64,000 bases of DNA from an uncultured bacterium. GTDB taxonomy: Bacteria; Bdellovibrionota_G; JALEGL01; DATDPG01. Shown piece after piece: positions 3,489-48,804 of the stretch. The notes below the pieces were generated by a model. That model made no database searches. It was not told where the DNA came from and saw nothing but the letters and a program-made list of their open reading frames with translations. The stretch spans positions 186,480-250,479 of the forward strand of contig CAYNHQ010000004.1 of the NCBI GenBank assembly GCA_964397255.1, given 5' to 3'. A program made the translations under genes and the position numbers. Positions within the stretch are counted from its first letter, which is position 1, and each line of letters starts with the position of its first letter.

Positions 3489-3829
3489 CTCGCCTGCCCG
3501 GAATGAATGGCCTTTGTCAGCTGGTTGAGGTTGTTCCCGACGCGAGCAAGCTCTTGATACGCGGATCTATTGATCTCGGGTGCGGGAAGAGGCGGAAGTC
3601 TACGCTTCAATACCGCCCGCCGGACGTATTCGCTCAGGCTTAGGTGGAAAGCTCGAGCGCTCATTCCGATCTCTTTTCGTTCTTCCGGCGTGAACCGAAT
3701 GGGAACGACGCGAGTCCTCCCGCGAACGGAGTGAGTGGGACCGCAAATCGACGTAGTCGGTTTGCATGGCTCGCTACTCACTTCTTCCCACATTCTTTCC
3801 CCCTGCTTCTCTTCCCATTTCTTTTTCAT
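3404..3829 (-). CDS. mobC: Relaxosome accessory protein MobC (ribbon-helix-helix mobilization protein)
   Basis: VVPIRFTPEERKEIGMSARAFHLSLSEYVRRAVL...YQELARVGNNLNQLTKAIHSGQ matches the MobC signature (RxTxEE...SxSEYIR...GNNLNQ). Start taken at the internal ATG at 3827-3829 (MKKKWEE). The upstream part of the 276-aa ORF overlaps a plus-strand gene and is judged non-coding. Confidence 0.7.
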   Translation of the reverse strand: MKKKWEEKQGERMWEEVSSEPCKPTTSICGPTHSVRGRTRVVPIRFTPEERKEIGMSARAFHLSLSEYVRRAVLKRRLPPLPAPEINRSAYQELARVGNNLNQLTKAIHSGQASCVGVGLLEEISAAVQNLALNVLASRLA

Positions 3830-3926
3830 CTTTTTGTCTTTTCTCTCTACGCATCTGTGATATAACACATTTGAGGTACACCGTGTCAACGCATAGTTAC
3901 GTGATAAAATATAACGTTTTAAGCCT

Positions 3927-4760: not shown

Positions 4761-4776
4761 TGGAGATCAAAACTCA

Positions 4777-13493: not shown

Positions 13494-14458
13494 CGAAGAA
13501 AACTTTTTATCGGGGTCGTAGGCTTCGCCGAAATGAAGAGGCCAGGAATTTTTCGCGTGAAACGTGGGTGACTCCTTCGGATCTTATATCGCCTATTTTT
13601 GTGACCGAAGGAAAAGGAGTTCGGCAGGCCATCGATTCGATGCCGGAGATTGAGCGTTACTCGGTCGATCAACTCGATAGCGAATTGGAAGCGGTTTTCG
13701 CTGCGAAAATTATGTCGGTTCTTCTCTTTGGCGTTCCAAAAGACAAGGATGCAAAGGCCTCTGGCGGTTGGAAGGAGAGCGGAGTGGTTCAAGAGGCAAT
13801 TGCGCGAATCAAGAAGATGGCGCCCGCGATGAACGTAATTACCGATGTTTGCCTATGCGCGTATACCGATCATGGACATTGCGGACATCTCAAGAATGGA
13901 ATCGTGGACAATGACTCTTCGCTTGAGACTCTGGCCCAAATAGCGCTCTCACATGCCAGAGCGGGCGCTGATTTTGTCGCACCTTCCGACATGATGGATG
14001 GGCGTGTTGCCGCGATTCGGGAGAAACTGGATGAGAATGGTTTTCAAAATCTTCCCATTCTTTCTTATTCAGCGAAATACGCCTCGGCCTTTTATGGACC
14101 TTTCCGCGAGGCGGCAAAATCGGGTGCTAAGGAGGGAGACCGGAAGAGCTACCAGATGGATCCTCCCAATGTCCGCCAGGCTATGCGTGAAATTGCGGCG
14201 GATATAGATGAAGGAGCGGATATGGTAATGGTAAAGCCGGCACTGGCCTATCTGGATGTCATTCGTGTCGCTCGCCAGCGTTTCGACACGCCGATCGTGG
14301 CTTACAATGTGAGCGGCGAGTATTCGATGGTGAAAGCCGCCGCGGAGCGGGGCTGGCTGGATGAAAAATCCGTCGTTCGTGAAATTTTAACAGCCATCAA
14401 ACGCGCCGGTGCCGATCGAATCGTTACTTACCACGCCAAAGACTTTGTCCGCGCGTAA
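13490..14458 (+). CDS. hemB: Porphobilinogen synthase (delta-aminolevulinic acid dehydratase)
   Basis: ALAD signature ...VMVKPALAYLDVI...SGEYSM.... ATGA overlap with hemD. Confidence 0.9.
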   Translation: MTKKTFYRGRRLRRNEEARNFSRETWVTPSDLISPIFVTEGKGVRQAIDSMPEIERYSVDQLDSELEAVFAAKIMSVLLFGVPKDKDAKASGGWKESGVVQEAIARIKKMAPAMNVITDVCLCAYTDHGHCGHLKNGIVDNDSSLETLAQIALSHARAGADFVAPSDMMDGRVAAIREKLDENGFQNLPILSYSAKYASAFYGPFREAAKSGAKEGDRKSYQMDPPNVRQAMREIAADIDEGADMVMVKPALAYLDVIRVARQRFDTPIVAYNVSGEYSMVKAAAERGWLDEKSVVREILTAIKRAGADRIVTYHAKDFVRA

Positions 14459-14520
14459 CGCCGCCGCGCGTAGTTGAGGTCATATTCATTCTTGATATGA
14501 TCCCGCGCGAAGGAGGAATC

Positions 14521-14907
14521 GTGCGTATTTATATTCAAATTGGTTTGGTAGTGGTGTTTTGTTTCAGCGTGGTATCCGCATTTGCTGCGAACTGTTATCG
14601 CGGCAGTCAAGGGACCTTGGTTGAAACCGTTGTTGTTCGCGATCCGATGGGCAATCTTTGGACGCTGGACAAAGGAACACAGGTAAGGGTGGTCGATGGC
14701 GAAGTGAGCATGAGAGATCCGCACTCGGGTGTTGAGCTCTACGCTTGGCTTGAATTGGCAGCTCAAACCCCGGCCACGCCTAAGGAAGTTCGTGATTCCA
14801 AAGGGACTTTGGTGGCCTGCGCAGTTGAACCGGGTCGGATCATTTCTGGACGAACTATTGACGAAGCACTTGGCACAAAATACGTGATCAATTGCTATCC
14901 TAACTAA
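14521..14907 (+). CDS. Hypothetical secreted protein
   Basis: GTG start preceded by RBS gaaggagga. Signal peptide VRIYIQIGLVVVFCFSVVSAFA. Confidence 0.4.
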   Translation: MRIYIQIGLVVVFCFSVVSAFAANCYRGSQGTLVETVVVRDPMGNLWTLDKGTQVRVVDGEVSMRDPHSGVELYAWLELAAQTPATPKEVRDSKGTLVACAVEPGRIISGRTIDEALGTKYVINCYPN

Positions 14908-16132
14908 GGGAATGAAAGACAAAGCCGGTCATGACTTTGGGGTAAAAGAAAGTTGATTTTTGGGGAAGAACCTCACCCCGTTTTGCCATTTCGATGACTT
15001 GTTCCACTCGCAGCGGCTTTAGCCAAAAGCCGATGCGATGGGGACTTTTCGTGAGTTCCACCACTTCATTCGCCGATTTTACAAATTGGATCTTGCGCTG
15101 ATCTTCCGGGTGCTGGAGGTCAAGACCAAAAATGGGTTTCATGATTTCGTGATTGAGAATTTCTGTCGGCAACATCGAAGATGGTTGTTTGGGCGTCAGT
15201 AGGGTCATCGTTGACTGACGGCCATCAATCCAGGCTATCGGAGCGTTCGCCATCGTGAAATGCTTTTCCTCGAGGGGCAATTCGTTCAAATGAAAATGAG
15301 GCAGCAACTTTTTGTCCAACTCCTCTTTGGAAAATGTCGTCGAGAGTACACGATGAATCGCGCCCAGGACCAAACCCGGATCGGGAGCCGTGGCCAAATA
15401 GGTGAGCATGAAACGGGATTCAGGCAGGCGATGGCCCTCCTTCTCCGCGAAATGAAGCGCGGTGGCGTAGCGATGATGACCGTCGGCGATCAAAAAGGGG
15501 ACATCTTTCAAGATTCGCTGAATTTCAGCCGTCATCAGTGGAGAGGAAATTCTCCAAAAGCGGTGTTCGATTTTTTCATCACGGTTCGCAAATTGAACGA
15601 GTGGTGGAAAAGAGGTGGTTCGGTCTAAGAGGGCCGACATCGAATGAGAGGGATCTTCGGCGATTAAATAAATGGGGCTTAAGTGGGTTTGAGTCTCCGT
15701 TAAAAGTTTGAGGCGATCTTCAATCGGTCCTGCAAGTGTTCGCTCATGTGGGAGAATGTTTCCTCTTCCCAACGTTTCCAATTCGACAAGGCCGATGATC
15801 CCGCGGCGTTGAAGTCGAGTCCCCTTCCACTCAAAGCTGTCCTCTACGACATAAGAGGATGGTTCTTTCTCCTGCTCGAGAGTGCCGTCTTTTTTCCACG
15901 CTGCTAGCGTCTCTGCGGCTTTACGGTAACGGGAAACATCTTCTTGTTCGGCCTTTGTCAATGTAAAGGGATCGCCCAAAATCAGGCGTATTACATTTTG
16001 GGGGTGTCGCACATGGAGTGCCTCACACTGCGATCGCGAAATGACATCATACGGGGGCGCTATGACGGCAGAGAAGTCGGATAGTTTGGAAAGATCATAG
16101 CGGAGACCTCGGAAAGGAAGGAATCGGGCCAC
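14900..16132 (-). CDS. DUF1015 family protein
   Basis: Conserved ADGHHR motif (FLIADGHHRYATA), recalled from memory as the DUF1015 signature. Confidence 0.65.
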   Translation of the reverse strand: MARFLPFRGLRYDLSKLSDFSAVIAPPYDVISRSQCEALHVRHPQNVIRLILGDPFTLTKAEQEDVSRYRKAAETLAAWKKDGTLEQEKEPSSYVVEDSFEWKGTRLQRRGIIGLVELETLGRGNILPHERTLAGPIEDRLKLLTETQTHLSPIYLIAEDPSHSMSALLDRTTSFPPLVQFANRDEKIEHRFWRISSPLMTAEIQRILKDVPFLIADGHHRYATALHFAEKEGHRLPESRFMLTYLATAPDPGLVLGAIHRVLSTTFSKEELDKKLLPHFHLNELPLEEKHFTMANAPIAWIDGRQSTMTLLTPKQPSSMLPTEILNHEIMKPIFGLDLQHPEDQRKIQFVKSANEVVELTKSPHRIGFWLKPLRVEQVIEMAKRGEVLPQKSTFFYPKVMTGFVFHSLS

Positions 16133-21000: not shown

Positions 21001-22299
21001 ATGAAGCTCTTCGCTGACCGGATAGAAGATTTAGGCACCGAAAATGCCTTTAAGGTGGGACCCTATATAAAGGAAGTGGAAAACACCGGTCACAGGGTCA
21101 TCAAGTGCAACCTTGGGGAGCCCGATTTTCCGTTGGCGAAGCATATTGCCGCGGAGGTCAAAAGGCAGATTGATCGAGACTTGACTCATTATGTGGATCC
21201 GCAGGGAATTCTCCCGTTACGCGAAACCGTGGCCAACGATGTGGGCAAAAAAAGAGGCCTCCACATCAATCCCGATCGTGTGGTTGTTTTTCCAGGGGCT
21301 AAACCATCCATTGGATTTTGCCAGCACGCCTATTGTAATCCGGGAGAAGAAGTTATTTATCCGAGTCCCGGATATCCGATTTACGAATCGTTTACGAAGT
21401 ATGTCGGGGCGAAACCCATTCCACTGCATTTGGAAGAAGAAAATGGATTTAGCTTCACAGGCGATGAACTGGCGCCACTCATCAGCCCACGAACGAAATT
21501 AATCATCCTCAACTTCCCCTCCAATCCTACGGGAGGCGTGGCCACCCGAGATCAGCTCAAAGGAATAGCGGAGGTGATTCGAAAAAAAGCGCCCGAGCAT
21601 GCGAGAATTTATTCCGACGAGGTGTACGAGAACATCTTGTTTGATGGTGCAAGGCATGTATCCATTGCGTCTCTCCCCGGCATGGATGAAAGAACGATCA
21701 TTGCGTCGGGCGCATCGAAATCCTATTCGTGGACGGGAGGCCGGATCGGCTGGGCCATCTTTCCGACAAAAGAGGAAGCAGCGATATTTAAAAATCTCAA
21801 TATCAACTACTTCTCTTGCATTCCGGCGTACAACCAGTTTGGGGCGAAAGTCGCGATCGAGTCCAAAGAAAGCGTCATTTCCATACGCAAAATGGTGCAT
21901 GCCTTTGAGGAGAGGCGAAACCTCGTGCTGAAGGGGCTCAATTCCATCCAGGGGATCACCTGTCAGACTCCCAAGGGAGCCTTTTATGTCTTTCCCAATA
22001 TTCGTGAAGTTTGCGAATCCATTGGAGCGATTGAGGCCTATCCAAAACTGGACCCTCTGACACGATCTCATTCGAGTCCTTCGACACTTTTTCAGATGTT
22101 CCTGCTTTACCGGTATCAGGTCGCGACGATGGACCGACGATCATTCGGAAGTATTGGAAGTGAGGATATGCACTTTCTTCGAATTTCGGTCGCGACGGGC
22201 AAGAAGGACCTCGAAGAGACACTGGACCGTATTCGAAAAGCATCGACCGACCGCATGGGATTTGCCGCCTTCATGAAGGAAGGGGGAAGGCTCTATTAA
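21001..22299 (+). CDS. Pyridoxal-phosphate-dependent aminotransferase, class I/II (aspartate/aromatic aminotransferase-like)
   Basis: PLP-lysine region IASGASKSYSWTGGRIGW and NPTGGV motif. Start at the internal ATG (MKLFADRIEDLG) preceded by ggaggg. The track ORF from 20824 uses a TTG start with an extension overlapping the divergent gene. Confidence 0.8.
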   Translation: MKLFADRIEDLGTENAFKVGPYIKEVENTGHRVIKCNLGEPDFPLAKHIAAEVKRQIDRDLTHYVDPQGILPLRETVANDVGKKRGLHINPDRVVVFPGAKPSIGFCQHAYCNPGEEVIYPSPGYPIYESFTKYVGAKPIPLHLEEENGFSFTGDELAPLISPRTKLIILNFPSNPTGGVATRDQLKGIAEVIRKKAPEHARIYSDEVYENILFDGARHVSIASLPGMDERTIIASGASKSYSWTGGRIGWAIFPTKEEAAIFKNLNINYFSCIPAYNQFGAKVAIESKESVISIRKMVHAFEERRNLVLKGLNSIQGITCQTPKGAFYVFPNIREVCESIGAIEAYPKLDPLTRSHSSPSTLFQMFLLYRYQVATMDRRSFGSIGSEDMHFLRISVATGKKDLEETLDRIRKASTDRMGFAAFMKEGGRLY

Positions 22300-23861
22300 T
22301 GTTTGAAGTGGCGAACGCCGGTAAAAATCATCGCGATATGGTGATCATTGGCGGCTTGAACAACCTCTTCGTCCCGAATGGATCCTCCCGGCTGGACAAT
22401 CGCTGTCACGCCGTACTTGGCCACTTCATCGATGGAATCGCGGAAGGGAAAGAAGGCATCCGAAGCAAGTGCGAAGCCTTTGAGTTTAATGGATTCCGCT
22501 TTTAGCGCGGCGAAGCGGCTGGAATCCACTCGGCTCATTTGTCCCGCGCCGATTCCGACCGTTGCGGACTCATTGGTGAGAACAATGGCGTTGGATTTCA
22601 CATGTTTCCCGACTTTCCACGCCAGTGTCAGGGCTCGAAGTTCCGCATCAGTGGGTTTTCTTTTCGTGACGACTTTTGATTCTTTCAAATTCTCTATGCT
22701 TCGATCACGATTTTGGATCAGATATCCATCAACGGCGCGCCGGATGTCGTAGCCCCCCAACACTTTTTTGGCGGCTTCGGTATCGACTTCCAAGAGGCGA
22801 AGGTTTTTCTTTTTGGAGAAAATCTTTAAAGCTCCCTCTTCAAACTTTGGTGCGATCACAATTTCCGTAAATGTTTCCACGCAATGGGCGGCCGTTTTCT
22901 CATCCAGCGGGTGAGAAAAAACCACGATGCCGCCGAAAGCGGAAACCGGGTCACAGGCTAGAGCCCGATCATACGCTTCGCCCAAGGATGTTTCCGACGT
23001 TCCCACCCCGCAGGGGTTGGTATGTTTTAAAATGGCTACCGCACGAACGTTTTCGAATTCGGTAATGAGATCAAGCGCGCCATGGACATCCATCAAATTG
23101 TTGTAGGAAAGAGCTTTTCCCTGAAGAACTCGTTCGAGAACCGTCACTCCCTGTGCGGCGGCCGGAAGATAAAATCCGGCCTTTTGGTGAGGATTTTCGC
23201 CGTAACGCATTTCCCATTTTTCTTGAAGTCCAAGTGCATAGCGCTTGGGCATCTCTTCTTCTTCGCCGCGGAAAAAAGCGGAGATGGTGGCGTCGTACTC
23301 GGCGGTTCGTTCAAAAACAGAACGAGCGCAATTCCTCCGAAATTCCAGCGTCGTCGCACCTTGATAATCTTCGAACTCTTTCAAGAACGTTTCGTACTGC
23401 GCCGGTTCAATGAGTACAGTTACGAAGGGGAAATTTTTCGCGGCCGAGCGAAGCATCGTCGGTCCGCCGATATCGATTTGCTCCACAATGTCATGAAACT
23501 GATTTTTCGGATTCTTGAGGGCCGATTCAAAGGGATACAGATTCACGACCACCAAATCGATCGGGACGAATTTCTGCGCCTCCAATTGTTTCATATGTTC
23601 GGCATTGTCTCGAATCGCAAGAAGGCCGCCGTGGACCTTGGGATGAAGGGTTTTGAGTCGTCCATCCAGCATTTCAGGCGCACCGGTGAAATTAGACACG
23701 TCGCGGACCGGGATTCCCTTTTCCGCCAGGAACTTCGCCGTTCCCCCTGACGAGAGAATTTCCACATCCCGTTTCGTAAGGGCGCGGGCCAACTCTTCGA
23801 GGCCGGACTTGTCACTCACACTTAAAATGGCTCTTCGGATAGGGATTCGATCACTTGTCAT
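22296..23861 (-). CDS. purH: Bifunctional AICAR transformylase / IMP cyclohydrolase
   Basis: MGS-like N-terminus ALTKRDVEILSSGGTAKFLAEKGIPV plus AICARFT domain. Confidence 0.9.
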   Translation of the reverse strand: MTSDRIPIRRAILSVSDKSGLEELARALTKRDVEILSSGGTAKFLAEKGIPVRDVSNFTGAPEMLDGRLKTLHPKVHGGLLAIRDNAEHMKQLEAQKFVPIDLVVVNLYPFESALKNPKNQFHDIVEQIDIGGPTMLRSAAKNFPFVTVLIEPAQYETFLKEFEDYQGATTLEFRRNCARSVFERTAEYDATISAFFRGEEEEMPKRYALGLQEKWEMRYGENPHQKAGFYLPAAAQGVTVLERVLQGKALSYNNLMDVHGALDLITEFENVRAVAILKHTNPCGVGTSETSLGEAYDRALACDPVSAFGGIVVFSHPLDEKTAAHCVETFTEIVIAPKFEEGALKIFSKKKNLRLLEVDTEAAKKVLGGYDIRRAVDGYLIQNRDRSIENLKESKVVTKRKPTDAELRALTLAWKVGKHVKSNAIVLTNESATVGIGAGQMSRVDSSRFAALKAESIKLKGFALASDAFFPFRDSIDEVAKYGVTAIVQPGGSIRDEEVVQAANDHHIAMIFTGVRHFKH

Positions 23862-23915: not shown

Positions 23916-24911
23916 TTAATGAATGCTAGCGAGAATCAGCTCGGACTTCTCACGATTTTGGGAATCATCATACATCGCGAGAGCAGTGAGGCTCTTGTCG
24001 ACCTCGTCTAATTTCACCGCGATGGCATAGCGTGTAGTAGAAGTGTCGTTCTTTTCCGCACGAATCGTCAACAATCGACCCTTCCGAGATCGGCTGGGTC
24101 CGATAGGAATTTCTTCTTCGTCTATACTCTCACTCGATTTCAGAACGATCATATTTTCAGGTGGAACGCTCCCCACAACGACGCGAATCCCGGGCATGGA
24201 AAATTCTCCCAAAAGGCCTTTCTCAGTGAGTGCCTGATAATCCATTTCCTGCGGAACCATGACGCGCCAACGATCGGCAAAATTCACATACTTCCAACCT
24301 TTCGCGACCATCCCCGGCGAGAGCTGATCGACGCGCGGTTTAGCATGTGGACTTTCTGAGCGCCTCGTCGCGGCTTTTCCGGTCATCACCCCATTTCCAA
24401 TTCGAACAGAAATGGGTGAGCTAGGGAGGCTTTTCTCGCCATTTGCGCTCGAAGCGACAGCGAACAAATAATAGGTTCCCGTTTTTCCCTCGGGAATGTC
24501 TATCGTGATTTCCCCTGGCTCTTCGATGCTGGCAAGCAGTTCGGCTTCTTTCGAATTCTTTTCGCTGGGGGGATGTTCTGACCCATAGAGGGTATATTCA
24601 ATTTTCTCCGAATGATTGGATTCGTTTCCGTTTACGTGAAGTCTATAGTGAATGCTTAATTCGGTACTTTCCGTCCCGCATGAACGGGTTTCCGATTCTT
24701 CGACGACCTCTAACTTTGGTGCCGAGATACCTGATTTCGTAGGAAGTGAATTCGTCGGGTGAGAACTTGGGGAGTTCGTAATCGTAGAATGCGACTCGGG
24801 GCGAATTCCAGCTTGAGCGACAGGCCCGGCGGTTGGTTTATTATGCGTTGATCCGCAGCCAAATAGACTAAAGCAAAGCGCAAGGGCGATCGTGTAGGGG
24901 GCCGACCTCAT
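23916..24911 (-). CDS. Hypothetical lipoprotein
   Basis: Lipobox LFGC after a signal peptide. Ser/Pro-rich N-terminal region. No domain recognised. Confidence 0.45.
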   Translation of the reverse strand: MRSAPYTIALALCFSLFGCGSTHNKPTAGPVAQAGIRPESHSTITNSPSSHPTNSLPTKSGISAPKLEVVEESETRSCGTESTELSIHYRLHVNGNESNHSEKIEYTLYGSEHPPSEKNSKEAELLASIEEPGEITIDIPEGKTGTYYLFAVASSANGEKSLPSSPISVRIGNGVMTGKAATRRSESPHAKPRVDQLSPGMVAKGWKYVNFADRWRVMVPQEMDYQALTEKGLLGEFSMPGIRVVVGSVPPENMIVLKSSESIDEEEIPIGPSRSRKGRLLTIRAEKNDTSTTRYAIAVKLDEVDKSLTALAMYDDSQNREKSELILASIH

Positions 24912-24967: not shown

Positions 24968-26401
24968 CTAAAACTTCGCGGCGCCGCCGGCAGAGGCGGC
25001 GATGGCCTTTAAGTCGCTGTCATAAAACTGAATTCCGAGGCCGAAAAACGGATTCTTTTTGGACGCCTTTGTGATCAGGTCATCCACACCTCCGGTAAAC
25101 AAGAGATGTTTGTAAAGGACGAGTGTTCCATATGCGCGCAGGTGCGCCCGGTCAAAGTCGCGGGAGAAATCAAATCCTTCAAATGAGACGATAAATTTAT
25201 CTCGCAGGAGATGATAGTCGAGGCCAATCCCCGCGCGAGAACGCATCAAACCCACTCGGGCGGTGAGATCCCACAAACGTTTAGCGTAAAAAAGGCTTAA
25301 GAGGAGATTATCGTTGGTTTGAATCGTCTGTGTGGTCGTTACCGGCACACCGTTAGAGAGAACCACCGTATCGGTCACGCGCGCGACTCCCACCGGGGCG
25401 GAGACAAATTCAAGCATTACGTATTGATCGGGCGTGGGCGCGACCGAAATTCCGATCAAACTTTGCAGCTCCTGCGCGCCGGTAAGCCACTCCCCCCGAT
25501 AGCGAATCCCGAGCTGAATTTTGCGAAAAACACCGAGCGTGTCGTTCACGGTGTCGATGGCTTGGTTCAAATTGTTGACGGTGGTTTCGTCATTGACCAG
25601 TTTGCCGATCGTCCCCTCTCCTTTGTCGATCTTGTCCGCCACGCGCTGAAGCGAAGCCATGGTCGAATCGAGGTTGTCGGCCGCTTTTCGGAACGATCCA
25701 TCTTTTCCAAGCACTTCCTTTAGACTCGACAACGTATCACTCATGGAAACGAGGACATTGTGAATGTCGTCCTTGTTTTCGCCCGTGATATCTTTGAGGT
25801 CACTCGTAAATGAATCGACGTTAGCCATGATCCTGTTGAATCGGCCCTCGTTCTCACCCACCATGTCTTTAATTTGTTTTGTAGTATCGCGAAGGTTCAC
25901 AATCACCTGGCCCAGCGCCCCTTTGGGGTTGTCCGACTCGACCAGCGACTTTACAAGGTCGGCGGTCTCCGCCAGGGAGCTTGTCAGGCGCTCGAGATCT
26001 CCCTGCGAAAATGTCTTTGGAATCTCGTCGCCATCCCCCAAGAGCGCGGCATCCGGCGTGCCGGGATTCAGCATGAGGAATCGATCCCCCAGAATTCCAC
26101 GGTCGCGAACGCTGAGCGAACTGTTGGCGTAGACTTTTACATCCTTTCGTACCCGAACAATGACGCGAGCTCGGCCGTCCACGAGATCAATCGATTGAAT
26201 GAAACCGGCTGGAATGCCCGATACTTCCACCGGAACTTTTCGGACGAGACCGCTTACCGACTGGAAATACGCACGATAACTGTTGGCCGAGCCACCGACC
26301 GTTCCTCGGTCGTTGATCTGGAGCGACATATAAATGATGATCAGGAGGCCAAGAAGTGCGAAGGTGCCCACCGTGAATTCAGTTGTAAGAAAGCGCCTCA
26401 T
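24968..26401 (-). CDS. mlaD: MlaD/MCE-domain protein with long C-terminal extension
   Basis: N-terminal TM plus MCE domain (VSGLVRKVPVEVSGIPAGFIQSIDLVDGRARV). Extra ~300 aa C-terminal region. TGA/ATG overlap with mlaF. Confidence 0.75.
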   Translation of the reverse strand: MRRFLTTEFTVGTFALLGLLIIIYMSLQINDRGTVGGSANSYRAYFQSVSGLVRKVPVEVSGIPAGFIQSIDLVDGRARVIVRVRKDVKVYANSSLSVRDRGILGDRFLMLNPGTPDAALLGDGDEIPKTFSQGDLERLTSSLAETADLVKSLVESDNPKGALGQVIVNLRDTTKQIKDMVGENEGRFNRIMANVDSFTSDLKDITGENKDDIHNVLVSMSDTLSSLKEVLGKDGSFRKAADNLDSTMASLQRVADKIDKGEGTIGKLVNDETTVNNLNQAIDTVNDTLGVFRKIQLGIRYRGEWLTGAQELQSLIGISVAPTPDQYVMLEFVSAPVGVARVTDTVVLSNGVPVTTTQTIQTNDNLLLSLFYAKRLWDLTARVGLMRSRAGIGLDYHLLRDKFIVSFEGFDFSRDFDRAHLRAYGTLVLYKHLLFTGGVDDLITKASKKNPFFGLGIQFYDSDLKAIAASAGGAAKF

Positions 26402-27150
26402 GTCAGTGTGTTGGCCGCCAGTTGCACGTCGATGAATTGTCTCACGAACGGGTGCTTGGATCGACGAAATTGCTCCGGCGTACCCGACTCGATGATCTTC
26501 CCTTCGTACAGCATGGAAATTTGATTCGCCAATCGGAACGACAGCGAGAGATCATGGCTGATCACCACGGCGGTTACTTCATGGCGCTGATGCGTGGTCT
26601 CAATGAGTTCAGCGATTTGATCGGTGATGATGGGATCGAGGCCAGTCGTGGGCTCGTCGAAGAGAAGAATTTTCGGATTCAACATAAGCGCGCGCGCTAA
26701 CCCTACGCGCTTGCGCATACCACCGGATAGTTCGTTCGGCAACTTGTGGTTGATGTCGGTGAGTCCCACTTCCGACAATTTTTCGACTACCTGATCCAGA
26801 ATTTCTGCATCTTTCATTTCAGTGTGCTCGTACAGCGGGAAACTGACGTTTTCGAAGACGTTCATATCGTCGAAAAGAGCGGCGTCTTGAAAGAGCATTC
26901 CAAATTTTCTTCGGACGATGTTCATTTCCTTGTTCGGTAGTCCGACGATATTTTCGCCTTCCAGCAAAATTTCCCCCTGATCCGGCCGAAGGAGGCCGAT
27001 CAAATGCTTGAGCATCACCGATTTCCCAGTCCCGCTGGGTCCCATGATGACGGTGATCTTTCCCGCTTCAATGGAAAGATTCACACCTGCCAATACCTTT
27101 TGTGTTCCGAAGGTTTTGTGAAGGTTTCGTATTTCAATCAGCGGCGGCAT
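26398..27150 (-). CDS. mlaF: ABC transporter ATP-binding protein, MlaF-like
   Basis: Walker A GPSGTGKS, ABC signature LSGGMRKRVGLARAL, Walker B LLFDEPTTGLD. Confidence 0.85.
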   Translation of the reverse strand: MPPLIEIRNLHKTFGTQKVLAGVNLSIEAGKITVIMGPSGTGKSVMLKHLIGLLRPDQGEILLEGENIVGLPNKEMNIVRRKFGMLFQDAALFDDMNVFENVSFPLYEHTEMKDAEILDQVVEKLSEVGLTDINHKLPNELSGGMRKRVGLARALMLNPKILLFDEPTTGLDPIITDQIAELIETTHQRHEVTAVVISHDLSLSFRLANQISMLYEGKIIESGTPEQFRRSKHPFVRQFIDVQLAANTLT

Positions 27151-27157
27151 TGATTCA

Positions 27158-27967
27158 TTAAAAGAGGAGGGCGGTTAGAAAATAATCGGATACCAAGACG
27201 GCAACCGATGAAATCACTACGGCGTGCGTGGTGGCTCGACCGACACCGGCGGCACCTCCACGGGCGTTGTATCCCTTGTAACAACTCACCAGAACGATAA
27301 TGATGGCAAAAAAACAGGACTTAAAAAGTCCCTGAACGACATCGGAGACATCAACGTAATACTGAATTTTCTGAACGAAAATCGCTTCGTCGATTTTCAA
27401 TAATTTAACGCCGACGACGTAGGCTCCCAGGGCACCGATAAAATCGAAAATAGTGGTGAGAAGCGGAAGAACCAGCAGGCTCGCCACCATCCTGGGAACA
27501 ATTAAGTAGTGGATCGGATTAACGGCCATCGATTCAAGAGCGTCGATTTGTTGCGTGACTTGCATGGTCCCGAGCTGTGCGGCCATCGCCGATCCCGCGC
27601 GCGCGGTGACCATGATTGCGGTGAGCACTGGCGACAATTCCCGGGCAATGGCAAGCGTGGCGACGGCACCGGTCAACGTTTCGGCACGAAAGAGAGCAAA
27701 GGCCCTTCCACTTTGGAGGGAAAAGACCATTCCCGTGAATGCGCCGGTGAGAAGGACGATAAAGAGCGAGCTAACGCCGATAAATTGCATTTGCACCACG
27801 ATCAATTTCCAGCGAATCGGCGGCGTGATCATTTGAACCACAGCCTGCCAGAGCAGGAGGAGCATTTTCCCTGTTTCGTCGATCGCCACCGTAAACGCGT
27901 GGATGATGGCGAGGACAATTCTTCCCAAATCTTGAACGGGTTTGTGAGGTAAGGGGGCGGGGCTCAC
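27158..27967 (-). CDS. mlaE: ABC transporter permease, MlaE-like
   Basis: Hydrophobic ~270-aa membrane protein reading as MlaE/Ttg2B-like. Sits upstream of mlaF with 4-nt coupling. Confidence 0.8.
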   Translation of the reverse strand: MSPAPLPHKPVQDLGRIVLAIIHAFTVAIDETGKMLLLLWQAVVQMITPPIRWKLIVVQMQFIGVSSLFIVLLTGAFTGMVFSLQSGRAFALFRAETLTGAVATLAIARELSPVLTAIMVTARAGSAMAAQLGTMQVTQQIDALESMAVNPIHYLIVPRMVASLLVLPLLTTIFDFIGALGAYVVGVKLLKIDEAIFVQKIQYYVDVSDVVQGLFKSCFFAIIIVLVSCYKGYNARGGAAGVGRATTHAVVISSVAVLVSDYFLTALLF

Positions 27968-29103
27968 TTTGCCCGTCCCATCAAATATTGACGGCTCACA
28001 CGCGTACTAATTCCGGTCAGTACCTCGTAGGGAATGGTCCGCTCCGCTTCCGCCAATTCACGGGCATCGGGAGCCCCCGTCAATGGCGTTCCCAGCAGAA
28101 TCGCTTCTTCTCCCGGTCGAACTCTTTCAAACGCACTTACGTTCATCATCATGAGATCCATGCATACGTTGCCGACAATTTCACATCGCTTTCCACGAAA
28201 TCCGATCCCGACCTTGGCATACCCCCTGCGAAATCCATCCCCGTATCCCGCCGCGAGCGTGGCAATCGTCATCCTTTTTCGCGCACGAAAACTTCGGTTG
28301 TAGCTGACGAAATCTCCCGAGGCAATTGACTTCACCTGCAAGATCGGCGCGCGCCATTCCAAAAAAGGCGCGAAGTCTTCGCCCTTTCGAACGAGATGCG
28401 CCGGTGGATATCCGTACAGAGCGATCCCCGGGCGAACCCAGTCGAATTGGGCGTTTGAATATCCCAAAATTCCTCCGCTGTTGGCTGCGTGGCGAATCAG
28501 CTTGCGATTCAGAGCCTTCTCAAACAGACCGACCGCCAATTGAAATCTTTTTAGCTGAAGTTGGGTCAGAGCCGGGTCGGGATCATCCGCCTCTAAAAGA
28601 TGAGTGAAAATTCCCTCGACTTGAACTCCCTGTGAGGATTGCAGCATGCCAGCTATTTTTTCCCAATCGCCCGGGTCGAGTCCCAGCCTGTGCATGCCGG
28701 TATCGACTTTCACATGAACACGAATTTTCCTCCGATGTTTTTTGGTGAAAGCTGTGAAGCGTGCCAGGCCTTCTTTGGAATGGATGGTCAAAATTAAATT
28801 GCTCTGAATGCTTTCTAAGAATGCCTGCTCGGAGGATGCTCCCAAACATAGAATATCTCCCTCATACCCCGCATCGCGAAGAGGGATGGCTTCGGCGACA
28901 TCCGCCACTCCTACGCCAGCGGCTCCCAGGCGTGCGGCTTCCTTTGCAATGGCCACACTTCCATGCCCGTACGCATTGGCTTTGACCACCGCGAGAATAC
29001 TCGTGCCGCGGCCCAGGCGTGCCAAAAGAGATTTCCAATTTCGTCGAAACCCTTGAAGGTCGATCACGGCCTTCGTCGGCCGAACGTAGGGAGATCGTTT
29101 CAT
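27964..29103 (-). CDS. alr: Alanine racemase
   Basis: PLP motif AVVKANAYGHG and C-terminal racemase domain. Confidence 0.85.
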   Translation of the reverse strand: MKRSPYVRPTKAVIDLQGFRRNWKSLLARLGRGTSILAVVKANAYGHGSVAIAKEAARLGAAGVGVADVAEAIPLRDAGYEGDILCLGASSEQAFLESIQSNLILTIHSKEGLARFTAFTKKHRRKIRVHVKVDTGMHRLGLDPGDWEKIAGMLQSSQGVQVEGIFTHLLEADDPDPALTQLQLKRFQLAVGLFEKALNRKLIRHAANSGGILGYSNAQFDWVRPGIALYGYPPAHLVRKGEDFAPFLEWRAPILQVKSIASGDFVSYNRSFRARKRMTIATLAAGYGDGFRRGYAKVGIGFRGKRCEIVGNVCMDLMMMNVSAFERVRPGEEAILLGTPLTGAPDARELAEAERTIPYEVLTGISTRVSRQYLMGRAK

Positions 29104-31082
29104 TTGAGCCCGAGTTCCATTTGAAGTTCAGCGATCGACTGATACCGCGCTTGGGGTTCTTTTTGAAGCGCGCGAAGAATCGCCCGCCGCATGTCCTCTG
29201 AAATTTGCGGCTCGCTTTCTTTTGGATCGGGAGGGGAAGTGTGGACATGATGGTAGCCAAGGTCGCCGCCTTTGAATGGAAGCGAGCCGGTGGTCAGCTC
29301 ATACATGCAGATTCCGACCGAATAGATATCGGTGCGATAGTCAATCGGTTTTCCCAGGGTCTGCTCCGGTGACATGTAGGAGGGAGTACCCCCGATGATC
29401 GACTGCTCACTGAGAAGTTCCTTGATAATTTTTGCCAGACCGAAATCCATGATTTTCACCCGTTTGTCCCGGGTCCACATGATGTTGTTGGTGGTTAAGT
29501 CTCGATGAACGATTTTGTTGGCATGGGCGTATGCCAGTGCCGAAAGAAGTTGCCTCAGAATTTCCCGAGTATCCACGTTGGAGAATTTTCCACGAGATCT
29601 CAGAATCTCCTTCAACGTTTTTCCCTGAATATATTCCATGGCGATGTAATAATCGTTCAGCTCCAGACCGGTATCGAAGACGGTGACGATATTGGGATGA
29701 TTCAAGCTGGCAGCGGCCTTTGCCTCTCGCAGAAAGGTTTCGACCGCTTGAAGATTTTTCTTGAATGCTCCGTGGAGAATTTTTAGAGCCACAATTCGGT
29801 CTAACTTCGTATCCTTCGCACGGTATACGATGCCCATACCCCCGCGGCCGATTTCCTCCATTCGAATGTAGCGTTTAGGTGTAGGCGCTGTGGCGATGCC
29901 CTCGGGAACAATTTCCAGCTCAGTACGCTCTTCATTTTGAAAACAGCGCTCCGCCTCTTCGAGATCTCCGGCGCGTTTAAATGCTTCGGCCGCCTCCGCC
30001 ATCCGGTTGGCCTTTTTATACAAAAAACCCGCGAGGGAATATTCCTTGGCCTCCTCATACATGTGGGCGGCCTGATCGAATTCTTCAAGATCGCGGTGAA
30101 TTTCAGCGGCGCGATGGAAATCTTCTCCCCTTTTAAATTGTTCAACGGCTTCACGATATTTTCCTTCCAAAAGGAAACGCTCGCCCTCTAAAAGGGCGGC
30201 CGCCTTTTGATCGCCCGTTAAAGCAATCGCTTGCGATGCTTTTTGAAGGTCGCCGGCTTTTTGAAAAAATTCAGCCGCTTTTTTGGGTTGTCCGGCGAGC
30301 AAATAGCATTCCGCCGCCTGACCGATATTTTTCAGCTCCTGAAAGACTTCCGCGGCGGACTCAAAGTCACCGGCCCATTTTAATAGACGCGCGGCGCGTT
30401 CTCCCGCCGCCTCGGTTTCCGGGCGGAAAGGTTCACCCTCAAGGCCATCCTGCATCTTTTTTGCAGCGAGGAAGGCTCGATCGGCTGCGTCGGCTGCTTC
30501 ATTTCGCTTCCCCAATTTTTCGAAGGTCTCGGCTGCATCACTGAAACGCGCAGCGGAAAAAAAAGCGCATGCCGCACGTTCCAGATTTCCGCTTTTAATA
30601 TAATAGTCACCCGTCAATTCCTTTTTCCCGGCCTTTTGAAGCGCTCCTTCGGCAAGGTCGAATTGTTTTCGTTCAAAATAAATTTCCGCCGCTTTCACAA
30701 ACTCGCCTCCACGCTCGTACAGTACCGCAGCTTTCTCCACATTTTTGCGCCGAAGCTGGATGTCGGCCGCACGACCGAATAAATTTCCCCTGATGAAAAC
30801 ATCCAGGGCTTGATCGATGTTTCCCAGTGCGATCAACCGATCTCCTGCTTGGGCGTATTCGCCCACTCGCAGAAGCGAACGAATTTCGCGATGCCCGTAC
30901 CAAATATTGAGAAGAGGAATCTTGGCACGAAAAGTAGCCCCTCTTGCACTCATAAAAAATCGATACAGGAAATATATGATGAGAATGAGGAAGCTCAGTT
31001 TTACAGAAGCATTCAGCCAAAAATGAGCCTGAATGACTTCCAGGGCCTGAGAAATAAAGCTGAGGGATTGCGATGGGTTCAC
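29100..31082 (-). CDS. Membrane-anchored TPR-like repeat protein with C-terminal Ser/Thr protein kinase domain (atypical catalytic loop)
   Basis: N-terminal TM (LSFLILIIYFLYRFFM). ~19-aa helical repeats (xxAAExFxKAGD...). Kinase motifs present: GRGGMGIVYRAKD, VALK, HRDLTTNN (canonical is HRDLKPxN), DFG, SPE. ATGA-coupled to alr. Confidence 0.75.
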   Translation of the reverse strand: MNPSQSLSFISQALEVIQAHFWLNASVKLSFLILIIYFLYRFFMSARGATFRAKIPLLNIWYGHREIRSLLRVGEYAQAGDRLIALGNIDQALDVFIRGNLFGRAADIQLRRKNVEKAAVLYERGGEFVKAAEIYFERKQFDLAEGALQKAGKKELTGDYYIKSGNLERAACAFFSAARFSDAAETFEKLGKRNEAADAADRAFLAAKKMQDGLEGEPFRPETEAAGERAARLLKWAGDFESAAEVFQELKNIGQAAECYLLAGQPKKAAEFFQKAGDLQKASQAIALTGDQKAAALLEGERFLLEGKYREAVEQFKRGEDFHRAAEIHRDLEEFDQAAHMYEEAKEYSLAGFLYKKANRMAEAAEAFKRAGDLEEAERCFQNEERTELEIVPEGIATAPTPKRYIRMEEIGRGGMGIVYRAKDTKLDRIVALKILHGAFKKNLQAVETFLREAKAAASLNHPNIVTVFDTGLELNDYYIAMEYIQGKTLKEILRSRGKFSNVDTREILRQLLSALAYAHANKIVHRDLTTNNIMWTRDKRVKIMDFGLAKIIKELLSEQSIIGGTPSYMSPEQTLGKPIDYRTDIYSVGICMYELTTGSLPFKGGDLGYHHVHTSPPDPKESEPQISEDMRRAILRALQKEPQARYQSIAELQMELGLK

Positions 31083-31169
31083 GTGATTTCGGGCCTAGTT
31101 ATACAGGGAGCCTTGACAAGCTACCAATCGAACCGTACCTAAAGCCAAATTCAACTTGGGGAGGTTTTC

Positions 31170-31715: not shown

Positions 31716-32123
31716 TTATTCCTGTTGGGGGACGTCACGGGCTTCGTGAAGGAACCAGTTTTGTTCCTTGGGATCATATTTCCAAATTTGAAGCTCTTGG
31801 CGATATTTTAGATCTTGATCCGCGACATTATAGAAACTGAATTCCACGAGCACCGATGCGTTTTTCTTTTCCGCGTCCACACCCAAATCTACAATCGAAT
31901 AGTCCACTACACGCGTGGTGCTTAGTTGCTTGGCCAATCGCTGCGCCATACTTCGGCGAACATCGTCTGCTATGACCGCACTAGCCGCCGTCACACTCGA
32001 CCATCGGACCGATCGATTGTAGGCCTCGGCCCGATCGGTCAAAAGCTCCACTCGCTCTTTTCCACAGCCAAGGAGTCCCAACAGAAGAACGATCGATAAT
32101 TCTCGAAGATGCACGACCCTCAT
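31716..32123 (-). CDS. Hypothetical lipoprotein
   Basis: Lipobox LLGC after a signal peptide. Confidence 0.4.
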   Translation of the reverse strand: MRVVHLRELSIVLLLGLLGCGKERVELLTDRAEAYNRSVRWSSVTAASAVIADDVRRSMAQRLAKQLSTTRVVDYSIVDLGVDAEKKNASVLVEFSFYNVADQDLKYRQELQIWKYDPKEQNWFLHEARDVPQQE

Positions 32124-32149: not shown

Positions 32150-32692
32150 CTATTTGGGGCGATTAAAAATATTTGCCAGGGAATTGGTATTTTGTGTGCT
32201 GAGTCCCTGGCAGGCTGCGCAAAATTGCGGGATCACGCGACCCGTGGATAGGGAGCTAAAACGAGGATTTTTCATTTGCATGGACATTCGCATAATGGCA
32301 CTGAGGTGAAGATATTTATCAAGGTACTTAAAAATGATGGCGCCAAAAGCATTCGACGAAAGATCCTTCCAAAAATCGAGGGAAAAAATACTCGAAAGAC
32401 TCATTGGTGTGGGTTGCGCTTTTTGTCCGCCCAAACCCATATTCTGCATCATTTGAGCATACAAGATGGCGCTGTAGGGATCGGCTGCCCCATTGCGTTG
32501 CAGAGCCAATAAAGTGGGGTCCATTTGAGGATAAATCCGGCTTGCCGCTCCAAAATCGGTTCCCCACTGATTTCCGGTTGCGCGCACATCGGACGGGGGC
32601 ATTGTAGTTGTCTGAGGAATGCCGGCCTGGGCGGGCGAACCCAAAAGAATGAGAAGTGCCAACGTCCGGAATATGAGCAGAGCTCTGCGCAT
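32150..32692 (-). CDS. Hypothetical secreted protein
   Basis: Start at the internal Met with signal peptide MRRALLIFRTLALLILLGSPAQA. The upstream extension in the track is implausible. Confidence 0.35.
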   Translation of the reverse strand: MRRALLIFRTLALLILLGSPAQAGIPQTTTMPPSDVRATGNQWGTDFGAASRIYPQMDPTLLALQRNGAADPYSAILYAQMMQNMGLGGQKAQPTPMSLSSIFSLDFWKDLSSNAFGAIIFKYLDKYLHLSAIMRMSMQMKNPRFSSLSTGRVIPQFCAACQGLSTQNTNSLANIFNRPK

Positions 32693-32772
32693 CGATCCTA
32701 TTCTACCGCAAGCCACATGCCAGCGAAGATCCAGGGACCTTAATATAACCCATTGAAACCATGTACATTTTT

Positions 32773-34020
32773 TCAAGTTGCGGGGGCGGGCGATGCTGAA
32801 GTTTGGCACTGTCGCAGCACTTCCCTGGCCTCGCTCAATTTCGGATTAAGCTCCAAAGCATGCTCAGCTGCCCGCCTTGCCTCACCTGTTTTCCCCAGAG
32901 CCAAAAGGGCCTGAGCCAGCGCAAGGTGTACATCGGCATAGCCTGGCTTCTTATCCGCTACACGCCCGAAATGGCGTGCCGCCTCGGCGAACTCCCCCAT
33001 CGCGAAAAGTAAGCGAGCATAATCCAGTCTCGCTTCGATGTAGCCCGTATGAATTCTCAGAGCCGCTTCCCAGCTCTTTCGAGCGGATTCCAGATCGCCC
33101 TCCGCCTGATGCAATAGGGCCAATTGATGGTGAAGGTCCGGGTAGTTGGGATGGCTCGACACCAATTCAAGCAAACGGGTTCGGGCTTGGCTCACATCGC
33201 CTCCTCTCGCAACTGCTGTGATAAGTTGTAGCTCGCTCGAAATCGTTTTCGGCGAAGGAAGCGCCTCTGAGGATTCCCGTCGCTTGAGCGAGCCGAGCAA
33301 TAAAATTCCGATGGCAATAATGGGAAGAAAAACAGCCAACGAAAAAATGCCGACATACATCCACTTCTTGTCCAGATGCCACGCAGGGGGAGGGGGGAGA
33401 GGTTTTTCGACCTTTGTTTCGGCCGGGGATTCTTCCAGAAGCGCCTTTACCGCCGCTTCAGGGGACGATTTAAGCTCTTCTCCAGTTCCACTAGAAAAAG
33501 ATGCGAGCTGATATTGGGCGCCCCGCTCCACGATTCGAATTCGTCCGGCCGTTTCATCCAGCCACATCTCTCCGAGGGGGTCGGGTGATCCGAGGGGGGC
33601 ATAAACGATTTTCCAGGCATGGGGATAGGCCTCGCCGAACACCGTAACGGGTTCAATTCCTGAATTCGAGAAAAGGAAGTCCCCGCTCTTCCAAGTTTGA
33701 CCCGCTTCGGCCGGTGTTTTGAAAAACATCAGAGGTTGATTACAACCCATCGCATTGGAGGGAAGTTGGCTCGCCTGACACTCGTACCAATCGCCATTGG
33801 AAGTGAAAACGAGGCGATTGTTTCCGTCGTCCCTACGAACGACGGCGACATTCACGCTTCCTTGACTGGTTGAAATGGTCGAGAAACTTTCCACATAATG
33901 ATGTCGTTGGGGCGAACCATCGACTTGATAGGTCCATCGTGTTCCGACTTTTAGAGAGAGCGGAGCGGCCGGAAAGCTCATAAAAAGAATGGATCCAATG
34001 AAGAAAGCTCGAGTGGTCAT
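32773..34020 (-). CDS. Signal peptide / periplasmic domain / TM / cytoplasmic TPR protein
   Basis: MTTRAFFIGSILFMSFPAAP is signal-like. Internal TM segment WMYVGIFSLAVFLPIIAIGILLLG. C-terminal TPR repeats. Start moved to Met6 for a 4-nt overlap with moaC. Confidence 0.45.
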   Translation of the reverse strand: MTTRAFFIGSILFMSFPAAPLSLKVGTRWTYQVDGSPQRHHYVESFSTISTSQGSVNVAVVRRDDGNNRLVFTSNGDWYECQASQLPSNAMGCNQPLMFFKTPAEAGQTWKSGDFLFSNSGIEPVTVFGEAYPHAWKIVYAPLGSPDPLGEMWLDETAGRIRIVERGAQYQLASFSSGTGEELKSSPEAAVKALLEESPAETKVEKPLPPPPAWHLDKKWMYVGIFSLAVFLPIIAIGILLLGSLKRRESSEALPSPKTISSELQLITAVARGGDVSQARTRLLELVSSHPNYPDLHHQLALLHQAEGDLESARKSWEAALRIHTGYIEARLDYARLLFAMGEFAEAARHFGRVADKKPGYADVHLALAQALLALGKTGEARRAAEHALELNPKLSEAREVLRQCQTSASPAPAT

Positions 34021-34454
34021 TTGATTCGCTTCCAAGACCCGCTTCTTCCGCCACTTTTCTCAAGAAGCTCAATGCGATGAATCGACATTCCTCGGTCGAG
34101 AGATTTGCACATATCGTATATGGTGAGGGCCGCCGCCGCGGCGGCGGTGAGCGCCTCCATCTCCACGCCGGTTTTCCACGTGACTTCGGCCGACGTACGA
34201 ATTTCAATTTCAGAAGGAACCTCCCGAATTTGAAATTCCACATCAAGGCATTCCAGCGGAAGGGGATGGCAGAGAGGGAGAATCCGGGACGTTTCTTTCG
34301 CCGCTTGAATCGCTGCCACCTTCGCCACAGCCAACACATCGCCTTTGGGGACGGTTCCATTCTGAATCGCGGCCAATGTCTTCTTCGATAGAGAAACGAT
34401 GGCATGCGCAGAGGCCCGTCGAAGAGTCGCCTCTTTCGGACCGACATTGATCAT
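34017..34454 (-). CDS. moaC: Cyclic pyranopterin monophosphate synthase accessory protein
   Basis: MINVGPKEATLRRASAHAIV... reads as the MoaC fold. Start at the internal ATG; the 215-aa track ORF has a spurious extension. Confidence 0.8.
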   Translation of the reverse strand: MINVGPKEATLRRASAHAIVSLSKKTLAAIQNGTVPKGDVLAVAKVAAIQAAKETSRILPLCHPLPLECLDVEFQIREVPSEIEIRTSAEVTWKTGVEMEALTAAAAAALTIYDMCKSLDRGMSIHRIELLEKSGGRSGSWKRIK

Positions 34455-48225: not shown

Positions 48226-48804
48226 ATGCGAAAAATCATTGGAGTGAGTTCACTGGTACTTCTTTTTGCGGGATGTGTGGCGAGTACAAACCGGGTGGAT
48301 GTGACTGCCGACGAGCCTTTTTCGGACACCCAAACGGGCAGCAAAGATCTCCTCGCGGTGGCTCAAAACATGTCGCGATCGATGATCCAACTTCCACAAA
48401 TTGCGAACGCAAAAACCCCACCTCGCATTGCTTTTGCCGATGTGAAAAATGAAACGAATGAAATTATTAACAAGAATCTCTTTATCGAAAAAATGCGAAC
48501 CCTTCTTTTGAAGAATGCCTCGGGGAAAATGGTTTTTCTGGATCGCGAATTGAGCGAACAAATCGCGAAAGAACGGGAGGCCAAACGGAAAGGCGAAATC
48601 ACCAGTTCAGGCTCGAAAATGAAATCGGGCGCGGACTATTTTCTGACCGGTAAACTTTCGTCCATCGACAAGGTGGCGGGAGGAACCCGTTCCACGTATA
48701 CCCGCTATGCCTTTCGTCTCACCGACGCCGAATCAACCGACATCCTTTGGGAGGATGAATACGAAGTGAAAAAGATCGGTGAGGCGGGATTGTACGATCG
48801 ATAA
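48226..48804 (+). CDS. LpoB-like (penicillin-binding protein activator family, COG3417-like) lipoprotein
   Basis: RBS aggagg upstream. Lipobox LFAGC. C-terminal ADYFLTGKLSSIDKV...YTRYAFRLTDAESTDILWE pattern resembles LpoB (from memory). Confidence 0.4.
   Translation: MRKIIGVSSLVLLFAGCVASTNRVDVTADEPFSDTQTGSKDLLAVAQNMSRSMIQLPQIANAKTPPRIAFADVKNETNEIINKNLFIEKMRTLLLKNASGKMVFLDRELSEQIAKEREAKRKGEITSSGSKMKSGADYFLTGKLSSIDKVAGGTRSTYTRYAFRLTDAESTDILWEDEYEVKKIGEAGLYDR

Follow-up and report, generated by a model that had tools for sequence, protein, structure and literature searches.

A Hanks-type kinase with a lysine-less catalytic loop encoded at the head of an alr–mlaEFD gene string in an uncultured Bdellovibrionota bacterium

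What does it mean that a gene for a protein kinase whose catalytic loop lacks a hallmark lysine (Lys) stands directly before the genes for alanine racemase and a phospholipid transporter, and could such a kinase still be an enzyme? These questions are raised by a stretch of 64,000 nucleotides (nt) from an uncultured bacterium of the Bdellovibrionota_G lineage (assembly GCA_964397255.1, contig CAYNHQ010000004.1, positions 186,480–250,479; hereafter the window, the positions of which are used below unless another locus is named). Five open reading frames (ORFs) on the minus strand are packed within positions 24968–31082. They encode a kinase (29100–31082; 660 residues, GTG start) with a predicted membrane anchor, a solenoid resembling tetratricopeptide repeats (TPRs) and a C-terminal Hanks-type kinase domain; the alanine racemase Alr (27964–29103; 379 residues); an MlaE-family ATP-binding cassette (ABC) permease (27158–27967; 269 residues, with a GTG start that overlaps the alr stop); an MlaF-like ABC ATPase (26398–27150; 250 residues); and a long MlaD/MCE protein (24968–26401; 477 residues).

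The ORF coordinates and family profiles bear out the operon-like packing that an earlier note, made from the letters alone, had described. Its three 4-nt overlaps are correct, i.e. kinase/alr (ATGA, the alr start overlapping the kinase stop), alr/mlaE (GTGA) and mlaF/mlaD, whereas the mlaE/mlaF gap is 7 nt and not 8 nt. The kinase gene is most likely translationally coupled to alr and, via alr, to mlaEFD, and the genes are presumably co-transcribed. On the other side of the kinase gene, the 87-nt region at 31083–31169 that separates it from the divergent ssb gene (plus strand) is the presumed promoter region of the string. The same gene order, with an identical kinase protein, occurs on two independent Logan assemblies, so the arrangement is not an assembly artefact. 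Our preferred answer, with a probability of about 0.5, is that the protein is an active, non-canonical membrane kinase that is coupled to alr–mlaEFD and coordinates envelope building.

The kinase domain (residues 404–657; 29112–29873, minus strand) is readily recognized. The Pkinase profile PF00069 matches residues 405–648 with 185.8 bits (cutoff 31.7; E 1.3e-54), the nearest solved relatives are the kinase domains of PknB, StkP and Stk1 (E 2.7e-51 for PknB), and a Foldseek comparison of the AlphaFold2 model with PknB gives a bilobal kinase fold with a template modelling score of 0.81–0.88. As the earlier note had read from the translation, the catalytic loop is HRDLTTNN (residues 526–533; 29484–29507, minus strand), with Thr530 in place of the Lys of HRDxKxxN, and the other motifs are intact, i.e. 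the Gly-rich loop GRGGMG (412–417), VALK (431–434, with K434), DFG (546–548, with D546) and SPE (571–573). Also present are E453 in helix αC, D528, N533, D585 in helix αF and R646 in subdomain XI. The alignment with Hanks-type kinases that the note had called for thus places PknB nearest and leaves the loop Lys as the sole missing catalytic motif residue. In canonical Ser/Thr kinases this Lys contacts the γ-phosphate of ATP.

Loss of such a residue might have left the domain inert or nearly so, in which case the protein would serve as a scaffold at the membrane that binds nucleotide and, with no phosphotransfer, brings partners together through its solenoid and kinase fold. A conserved basic residue that might compensate for the Lys was sought across the relatives that share its loss, and none was found; phosphotransfer may therefore be weak. 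In addition, the activation loop no longer has its Thr–Thr pair and carries a possibly phosphomimetic Glu instead, neither a PP2C phosphatase nor an FHA partner is encoded in the window, and the PknB_PASTA model scores 301–317 bits in Lys-less proteins versus 334–342 bits in Lys-type relatives (i.e. those that retain the Lys). Against an inert domain, the VAIK-Lys, the HRD-Asp, the DFG-Asp and the Mg-binding Asn are all present and invariant, the replaced position accepts Thr or Ser only, the kinase domain is the best-conserved part of the protein, and a human kinase with the same type of loop is active (see below). Because the residues that bind ATP/Mg and take part in phosphoryl transfer have all been retained under strong constraint, the protein is most likely still an enzyme, Hanks-type but non-canonical, and we consider a dead pseudokinase unlikely. 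In a recent atlas of 42 families of bacterial Ser/Thr kinases, a pseudokinase is one that has lost at least one of three residues, namely VAIK-Lys, HRD-Asp and DFG-Asp (bioRxiv 10.1101/2025.01.12.632604), and the protein falls outside that definition. The catalytic-loop Lys itself counts as a hallmark among Ser/Thr kinases, and kinome surveys based on the VAIK/HRD/DFG triad would miss its loss.

The constraint is best seen across the clade. The best 120 relatives of the window kinase comprise 36 Lys-less and 84 Lys-type proteins. The Lys-less set consists of the 35 nearest homologs (793–816 residues), from metagenome-assembled genomes (MAGs) labelled Bdellovibrionota, Bdellovibrionales or ‘Pseudomonadota’, and of the Oligoflexia protein P0087; all carry HRDL[TS][TNS][NST]N, with Thr (32) or Ser (4) at the Lys position. 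All of the next 84 relatives (~850 residues; ‘Deltaproteobacteria’ and others) retain Lys in the form HRD[IVM]K[TPS]xN. An alignment of the window protein with 34 relatives (hereafter A1) is invariant in the Gly-rich loop, K434, E453, the His, Arg and Asp at 526–528, N533, D546, T566, SPE, D585 and R646.

Loss of the Lys does not stand alone. The columns by which the two groups differ are concentrated in the catalytic loop and in the activation segment (positions 558–561, 564 and 568), and the latter, which reads SEQSIIGGTPSYMSPE in the window kinase (29364–29411, minus strand), co-varies with the loss. Lys-type relatives have N-H-T-T-x-x-S-G-T-P-Y here; towards the Lys-less group N-H-T-T becomes S-E-Q-S, Ser becomes Gly, and Tyr after the GTP motif becomes Ser, such that the Thr–Thr phospho-acceptor pair is replaced by Gln–Ser and His by an invariant Glu. 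Pairwise identity within the Lys-less group is 68% for the kinase domain versus 36% for the solenoid, which is the opposite of what is expected for a decaying domain. Lys-type sequences form one clade that excludes every Lys-less one, also when the discriminating columns are removed; this is an unrooted split, and the question was put in that form after a midpoint-rooted tree had placed the root inside the Lys-less group. The Lys-less clade looks monophyletic and appears to be old, with members in Bdellovibrionota/Oligoflexia-type genomes, and the change from Lys to Thr or Ser is a fixed and selected state of this clade rather than a lesion.

The combination extends beyond this homolog set. 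When a representative library of 1.84 billion proteins was searched, ~15 clusters (50% identity level) among the top 150 combined the Lys-less loop with an EQSIIGGTP activation segment. A scan of a genome collection with two A1-derived peptides (KIMDFGLA and PS[FY]MSPEQ) was too generic: it returned unrelated kinases (loci L014–L082), provided Lys-type contexts (L003–L013) and had no Lys-less member among the matches listed. A metagenome scan with the Lys-less loop pattern, on contigs mostly too short to show gene context, gave a partial locus of the kinase–alr–mla type (L090), several fragments with ssb and the kinase gene, and two kinds of fusion protein. The same pattern also matched apparently eukaryotic metagenome sequences (CMGC-like HRDL[TS]T[NT]N and Bud32-like HSDLTTSN; L092 and L095; L096, L099 and L103).

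One of the fusions (L114, 6705–9764, plus strand; 1019 residues) joins the same Lys-less kinase module, HRDLTTSN with SEQSIIGGTPSFMSPE, to MshEN, HD_5 (HD-GYP-like), receiver and TPR domains, and its gene is not adjacent to alr or mla. It indicates that the Lys-less kinase module is also used in a signalling context of the cyclic-di-GMP type. The other kind is a family in which a kinase is fused to an nSTAND2 NTPase (L091, 107–2065, plus strand; also L111, L113, L110 and L100). Its members share the lack of the loop Lys with the window kinase (Ser–Thr in L091, L111 and L113, in the form HRDLSTNN), but they differ in having the kinase domain at the N-terminus, DLG in place of DFG, the STAND NTPase fusion, a kinase-domain identity of 34–35% and an unrelated gene context. 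As this family is unrelated and also Lys-less, the catalytic-loop Lys has been lost more than once in bacteria.

A precedent for the chemistry exists in the Bud32/RIO group. The loop of human PRPK (Bud32) reads 160-HGDLTTSN-167; the K60A substitution leaves this kinase with almost no autophosphorylation, and D162N lowers it dramatically (PMC7864929). Since PRPK is active with this loop, phosphoryl transfer can take place with a Lys-less loop of the form H-x-D-L-T-T-S-N. The window kinase shares with Bud32/PRPK and RIO the loop H-x-D-L-T-T-[SN]-N, with a hydroxyl residue in place of Lys, and its HRDLTTNN agrees with the general form H-x-D-L-[ST]-x-x-N. Bud32 and RIO lack an activation segment, an APE motif and the helices after αF (stated for PRPK, PMC7864929), whereas the window kinase has all of these, and the Bud32 profile TIGR03724 gives it 55 bits against a cutoff of 125, so that neither the Bud32/RIO profile nor the minimal fold applies to it. 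A special kinship with Bud32 was rejected: the NCBIfam Bud32 models (1e-12 to 1e-15) match Lys-type relatives equally well, and the loop alone is alike. The resemblance is best read as local convergence and not as kinship. The Lys-less clade offers a natural experiment on whether a loop of the Bud32 kind can function inside a full PknB-type fold. The earlier note had also allowed that HRDLTTNN might be no more than a common active variant, and this holds in part: the variant is common in the clade and recurs in the kinase–nSTAND2 family, and the PRPK loop supports autophosphorylation (PMC7864929). The string ‘HRDLTT’ occurs in no searchable paper.

The rest of the protein is as distinctive as the loop. 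A single transmembrane (TM) helix, FWLNASVKLSFLILIIYFLYRFFM, is predicted at residues 21–44 (30951–31022, minus strand), followed by a basic stretch; the Kyte–Doolittle maximum is 1.88 at residues 21–39 and the AlphaFold2 model has a helix at 21–44. By the positive-inside rule the sequence implies an N-out/C-in topology with solenoid and kinase domain in the cytoplasm. A hydrophobic N-terminal segment is found in 27/36 Lys-less and 83/84 Lys-type relatives. Residues 73–385 (29928–30866, minus strand) consist of ~24 tandem helix–turn repeats with the motif G-[DE]-[FY]-x-x-A-A-x-x-[FY]-x-x-x. Their period is 13 residues, given by BLOSUM autocorrelation peaks at 13, 26 and 39, and not the ~19 residues of the earlier note. 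The AlphaFold2 model (predicted local distance difference test 93, predicted template modelling score 0.79) accordingly shows ~24 helices of ~10 residues joined by 3-residue turns in a TPR-like α-solenoid. The likeness to TPR-like solenoids is at fold level only: the period of 13/26 is not the 34 residues of canonical TPRs, and all matches to the TPR families of Pfam are below cutoff.

An N-terminal TM helix followed by repeats and a C-terminal kinase domain is unusual, as the note had held. In the 42-family atlas a TM segment lies N-terminal to the kinase in one family only, TPRs occur only C-terminal to it, and none of the conserved architectures matches that of the window kinase (bioRxiv 10.1101/2025.01.12.632604). 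The envelope-controlling kinases PknB, StkP and Stk1 share with it the kinase-domain sequence and fold, membrane anchoring and a genomic tie to a peptidoglycan-precursor enzyme. Compared with these, the order of parts is reversed, PASTA or any other extracytoplasmic sensor is lacking, Thr replaces the catalytic-loop Lys and the activation-loop Thr–Thr pair is lost. The PASTA kinase equivalog NF033483 reaches 317 bits against a cutoff of 450, and the alignment covers no more than its kinase part (model positions 7–265 of 563). The Lys-retaining relatives (~850 residues; Myxococcota and ‘Deltaproteobacteria’ MAGs), which are uncharacterized, share the N-terminal hydrophobic segment, the 13/26-residue repeats and the C-terminal kinase domain at 45–61% kinase-domain identity, but keep HRD[IV]K and NHTT and do not lie beside alr or mla.

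We then compared gene order across relatives, the check that the earlier note had proposed for its operon. The order ssb | kinase–alr–mlaE–mlaF–long mlaD, with ssb divergent, is present in all nine full-context loci that encode a Lys-less TM–solenoid–kinase protein (i.e. the window, L083–L086, L089 and L115–L117; in L084 alr was uncalled and was found by tblastn), such that the note's worry that the order might not be conserved proved unfounded. The partial contig L090 agrees with the kinase–alr–mla order, and every related locus with sequence upstream of the kinase gene keeps the divergent ssb | kinase arrangement. Directly 3' of mlaD, purH follows in 7/9 full loci; the window has an extra lipoprotein gene at this place, and L089 has genes for an outer-membrane phospholipase A (PLA1) and a peptidase between mlaD and purH. 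By contrast, kinase–alr–mlaEFD order occurs in none of the ~12 Lys-type loci, two of which (L007 and L088) continue with lpxC while the others have unrelated neighbours.

Conserved adjacency of this kind may be partly due to slow genome rearrangement, i.e. plain synteny. The kinase would then be a general cytoplasmic signalling protein, and its place beside alr–mlaEFD would be inherited by descent with no functional coupling. Collinearity with relatives indeed extends over more than 25 kb, e.g. in L085. On one side it includes DUF1015, Sua5, purD and a TPR protein up to purH and, on the other, ORF135, a TPR protein, an SRP54-type GTPase, a Na/Pi transporter and YmdB. As the conserved block holds ssb and purine genes (purH and purD) besides Sua5 and DUF1015, adjacency alone is no proof of a functional link and guilt by association is weakened. 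Moreover, the same kinase module occurs outside an alr–mla context in L114, and Lys-type relatives lie in varied contexts. Several observations nevertheless run counter to mere descent: (i) the core ssb | kinase–alr–mlaEFD order persists where both flanks have changed, with pnp–rpsO upstream in L086 and L116 and PLA1 inserted in L089; (ii) kinase and alr overlap by 4 nt or 1 nt, or lie 6–22 nt apart, in the window and in six of the nine related loci covering this junction, the gap being longer in L084 and L117; (iii) two Lys-type relatives adjoin lpxC, another envelope gene; and (iv) kinase identity among these loci is only 35–50%, hence the lineage is deep. On balance we regard descent with no coupling as doubtful, although it deserves to be taken seriously. 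A kinase gene fixed at the head of alr–mlaEFD is a candidate link from peptidoglycan-precursor supply to inter-membrane lipid transport; if the link is synteny only, the finding shrinks to an uncharacterized kinase subfamily.

Some neighbours in these loci touch on the envelope or travel with the block. In L089, an Oligoflexia relative, the PLA1 gene (14325–15110, minus strand) follows directly after the long mlaD; PLA1, like Mla, acts on outer-membrane phospholipids. The lpxC genes after Lys-type kinases (L007, 12425–13456; L088, 10849–11751; both plus strand) belong to lipid A synthesis and are a second hint of envelope association. ORF135 (31716–32123, minus strand), a small predicted lipoprotein with the lipobox LLGC, is found upstream of ssb in L083–L086 by tblastn. 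Beyond ssb, 32150–34035 (minus strand) holds a 219-residue ORF and a 420-residue protein with C-terminal TPRs; apart from the TPRs, neither these two nor ORF135 has a family match, and the TPR protein is found in L083 and L085 by tblastn.

Family profiles confirm the assignments of the other four genes. Alr has both domains (Ala_racemase_N and Ala_racemase_C), the Lys that binds pyridoxal phosphate (K41 in KANAYGHG) and the catalytic Tyr in VSYN at 267, and the TIGR00492 model scores 307.4 bits (cutoff 168). MlaE matches PF02405 (263 bits, 1.8e-78) and TIGR00056 (256.5 versus 212.2), while the narrower NF033619 gives 230.6, below its cutoff of 315. The ATPase (ABC_tran 5.3e-37) has MlaF NF008809 as its best NCBIfam model, at 222 bits and thus below the equivalog cutoff of 441, and its Walker A (GPSGTGKS), signature (LSGG) and Walker B (ILLFDE) motifs are intact. 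MlaD comprises a TM segment, an MCE/MlaD domain (PF02470 at residues 40–114), a long helical region and a β-rich C-terminal domain that ends in ...AAKF. Residues 6–140 alone align to solved MlaD and Mce1 structures, and the remaining 335 residues have precomputed Pfam hits to Helical_needle and Aq_493_lipo on an identical protein.

The transporter genes of the window do not fit the Escherichia coli type (MlaFEDB with MlaC and MlaA). Only the MlaE permease agrees with that type: MlaD is not short (TIGR04430 gives 77.7, below 135), MlaF does not reach the equivalog cutoff, and none of the window ORFs scanned matched a STAS (MlaB), MlaC or MlaA family. Minimal MlaEFD systems, in which MlaD is elongated and trans-envelope, have been described from Veillonella parvula and from numerous further phyla (PMC10665443). 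The window genes agree with this type in having MlaE, MlaF and one MlaD with TM segment, MCE domain and helical extension, which at 477 residues is over twice as long as the E. coli protein (183 residues), and in lacking mlaA, mlaB and mlaC in the cluster. They differ from the V. parvula type in that alr and a kinase gene stand in front of them, with translational coupling to the cluster. By its domain layout MlaD matches the long trans-envelope type, and its β-rich C-terminal domain may correspond to the outer-membrane β-barrel of that type.

How might these parts work together? The kinase would cross the inner membrane once, by its one TM helix, with a short N-terminal stretch in the periplasm and the solenoid and PknB-type domain in the cytoplasm. 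It could be a non-canonical phosphotransferase or an ATP-hydrolysing switch with a Bud32/RIO-like catalytic loop, for which the solenoid may serve as a partner-docking module. Its most likely role would be to control or coordinate, from the cytoplasmic face, envelope building in the form of D-alanine supply for peptidoglycan and inter-membrane phospholipid traffic. A link of the kinase to cell-envelope upkeep is plausible, and it may act on Alr or Mla.

Besides the missing basic residue, the absent phosphatase and FHA partners and the long collinearity described above, four points weigh against an envelope-coordinating kinase. First, the N-terminal hydrophobic segment is weak or absent in 9/36 Lys-less relatives. 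Second, the protein has no periplasmic (extracytoplasmic) domain and no sensor domain. Third, the window kinase lacks ~145 residues that are found in all 34 aligned relatives of A1. These correspond to a second, more canonical TPR block and a Ser/Gly-rich linker, and the missing part falls in the region 29883–29940 (residues ~385–403, versus A1 columns ~397–575). We considered an artefact or a pseudogene as the cause of the shortening and rejected both, since the reading frame is uninterrupted, no motif is missing and an identical protein occurs in two further assemblies. Fourth, promoter and terminator scans gave counts under shuffle expectation, and no transcription-unit boundary is assignable; there is no consensus σ70 site in the 87-nt ssb/kinase gap and no convincing terminator between mlaD, the lipoprotein gene and purH.

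A more specific version of an envelope-coordinating kinase may be put forward as a long shot. In Proteobacteria the STAS protein MlaB holds the regulatory slot of Mla; MlaB is missing from the minimal MlaEFD systems of the trans-envelope type, for which we know of no regulator. A Hanks-type kinase that has converged on Bud32/RIO-type chemistry might fill this slot, not as a classical protein kinase but as an ATP-driven switch or dedicated phospho-regulator, docked by its solenoid on the cytoplasmic face of MlaEFD and/or on Alr, and so tie phospholipid traffic to D-alanine supply.

Envelope-controlling Hanks-type kinases, MlaEFD systems and alr are each already known. We found no description of (i) the clade-wide Thr/Ser in place of Lys, with a co-varying activation segment, in a full PknB-type fold; (ii) the kinase architecture with an N-terminal TM helix and 13-residue repeats; and (iii) its fixed place at the head of alr–mlaEFD. 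Literature searches on alanine racemase with Hanks-type kinases, on MlaF with threonine kinases and on Bdellovibrio with Hanks-type kinases returned nothing relevant.

Downstream, the co-directional string runs beyond mlaD. After a gap of 56 nt lies a gene for a predicted lipoprotein with the lipobox LFGC (23916–24911, minus strand; 331 residues), and 54 nt further downstream lies purH (22296–23861, minus strand). The lipoprotein has no Pfam or NCBIfam match, its only tblastn match is in L001 (same organism), and its gene is absent between mlaD and purH in the nine related loci that span this position; its membership of the unit is uncertain. The purH gene may be co-transcribed with the string and is probably functionally unrelated to it. 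An Rfam scan of the window gave tRNA only, with no riboswitch or leader near the cluster.

Elsewhere in the window, a putative integrated mobile element lies at a tRNA gene (391–6243), with tRNA-Met (391–467), a phage-type integrase (566–1837), a MobA/VirD2 relaxase (2115–3488) and a Schlafen/AlbA_2–HATPase_c_4 protein (4777–6243). An LpoB-like lipoprotein, a peptidoglycan-synthase activator, is encoded at 48226–48804 (plus strand), and a pilus/secretion cluster at 51168–57848 encodes a secretin, three T2SSE-type ATPases and a T2SSF protein.

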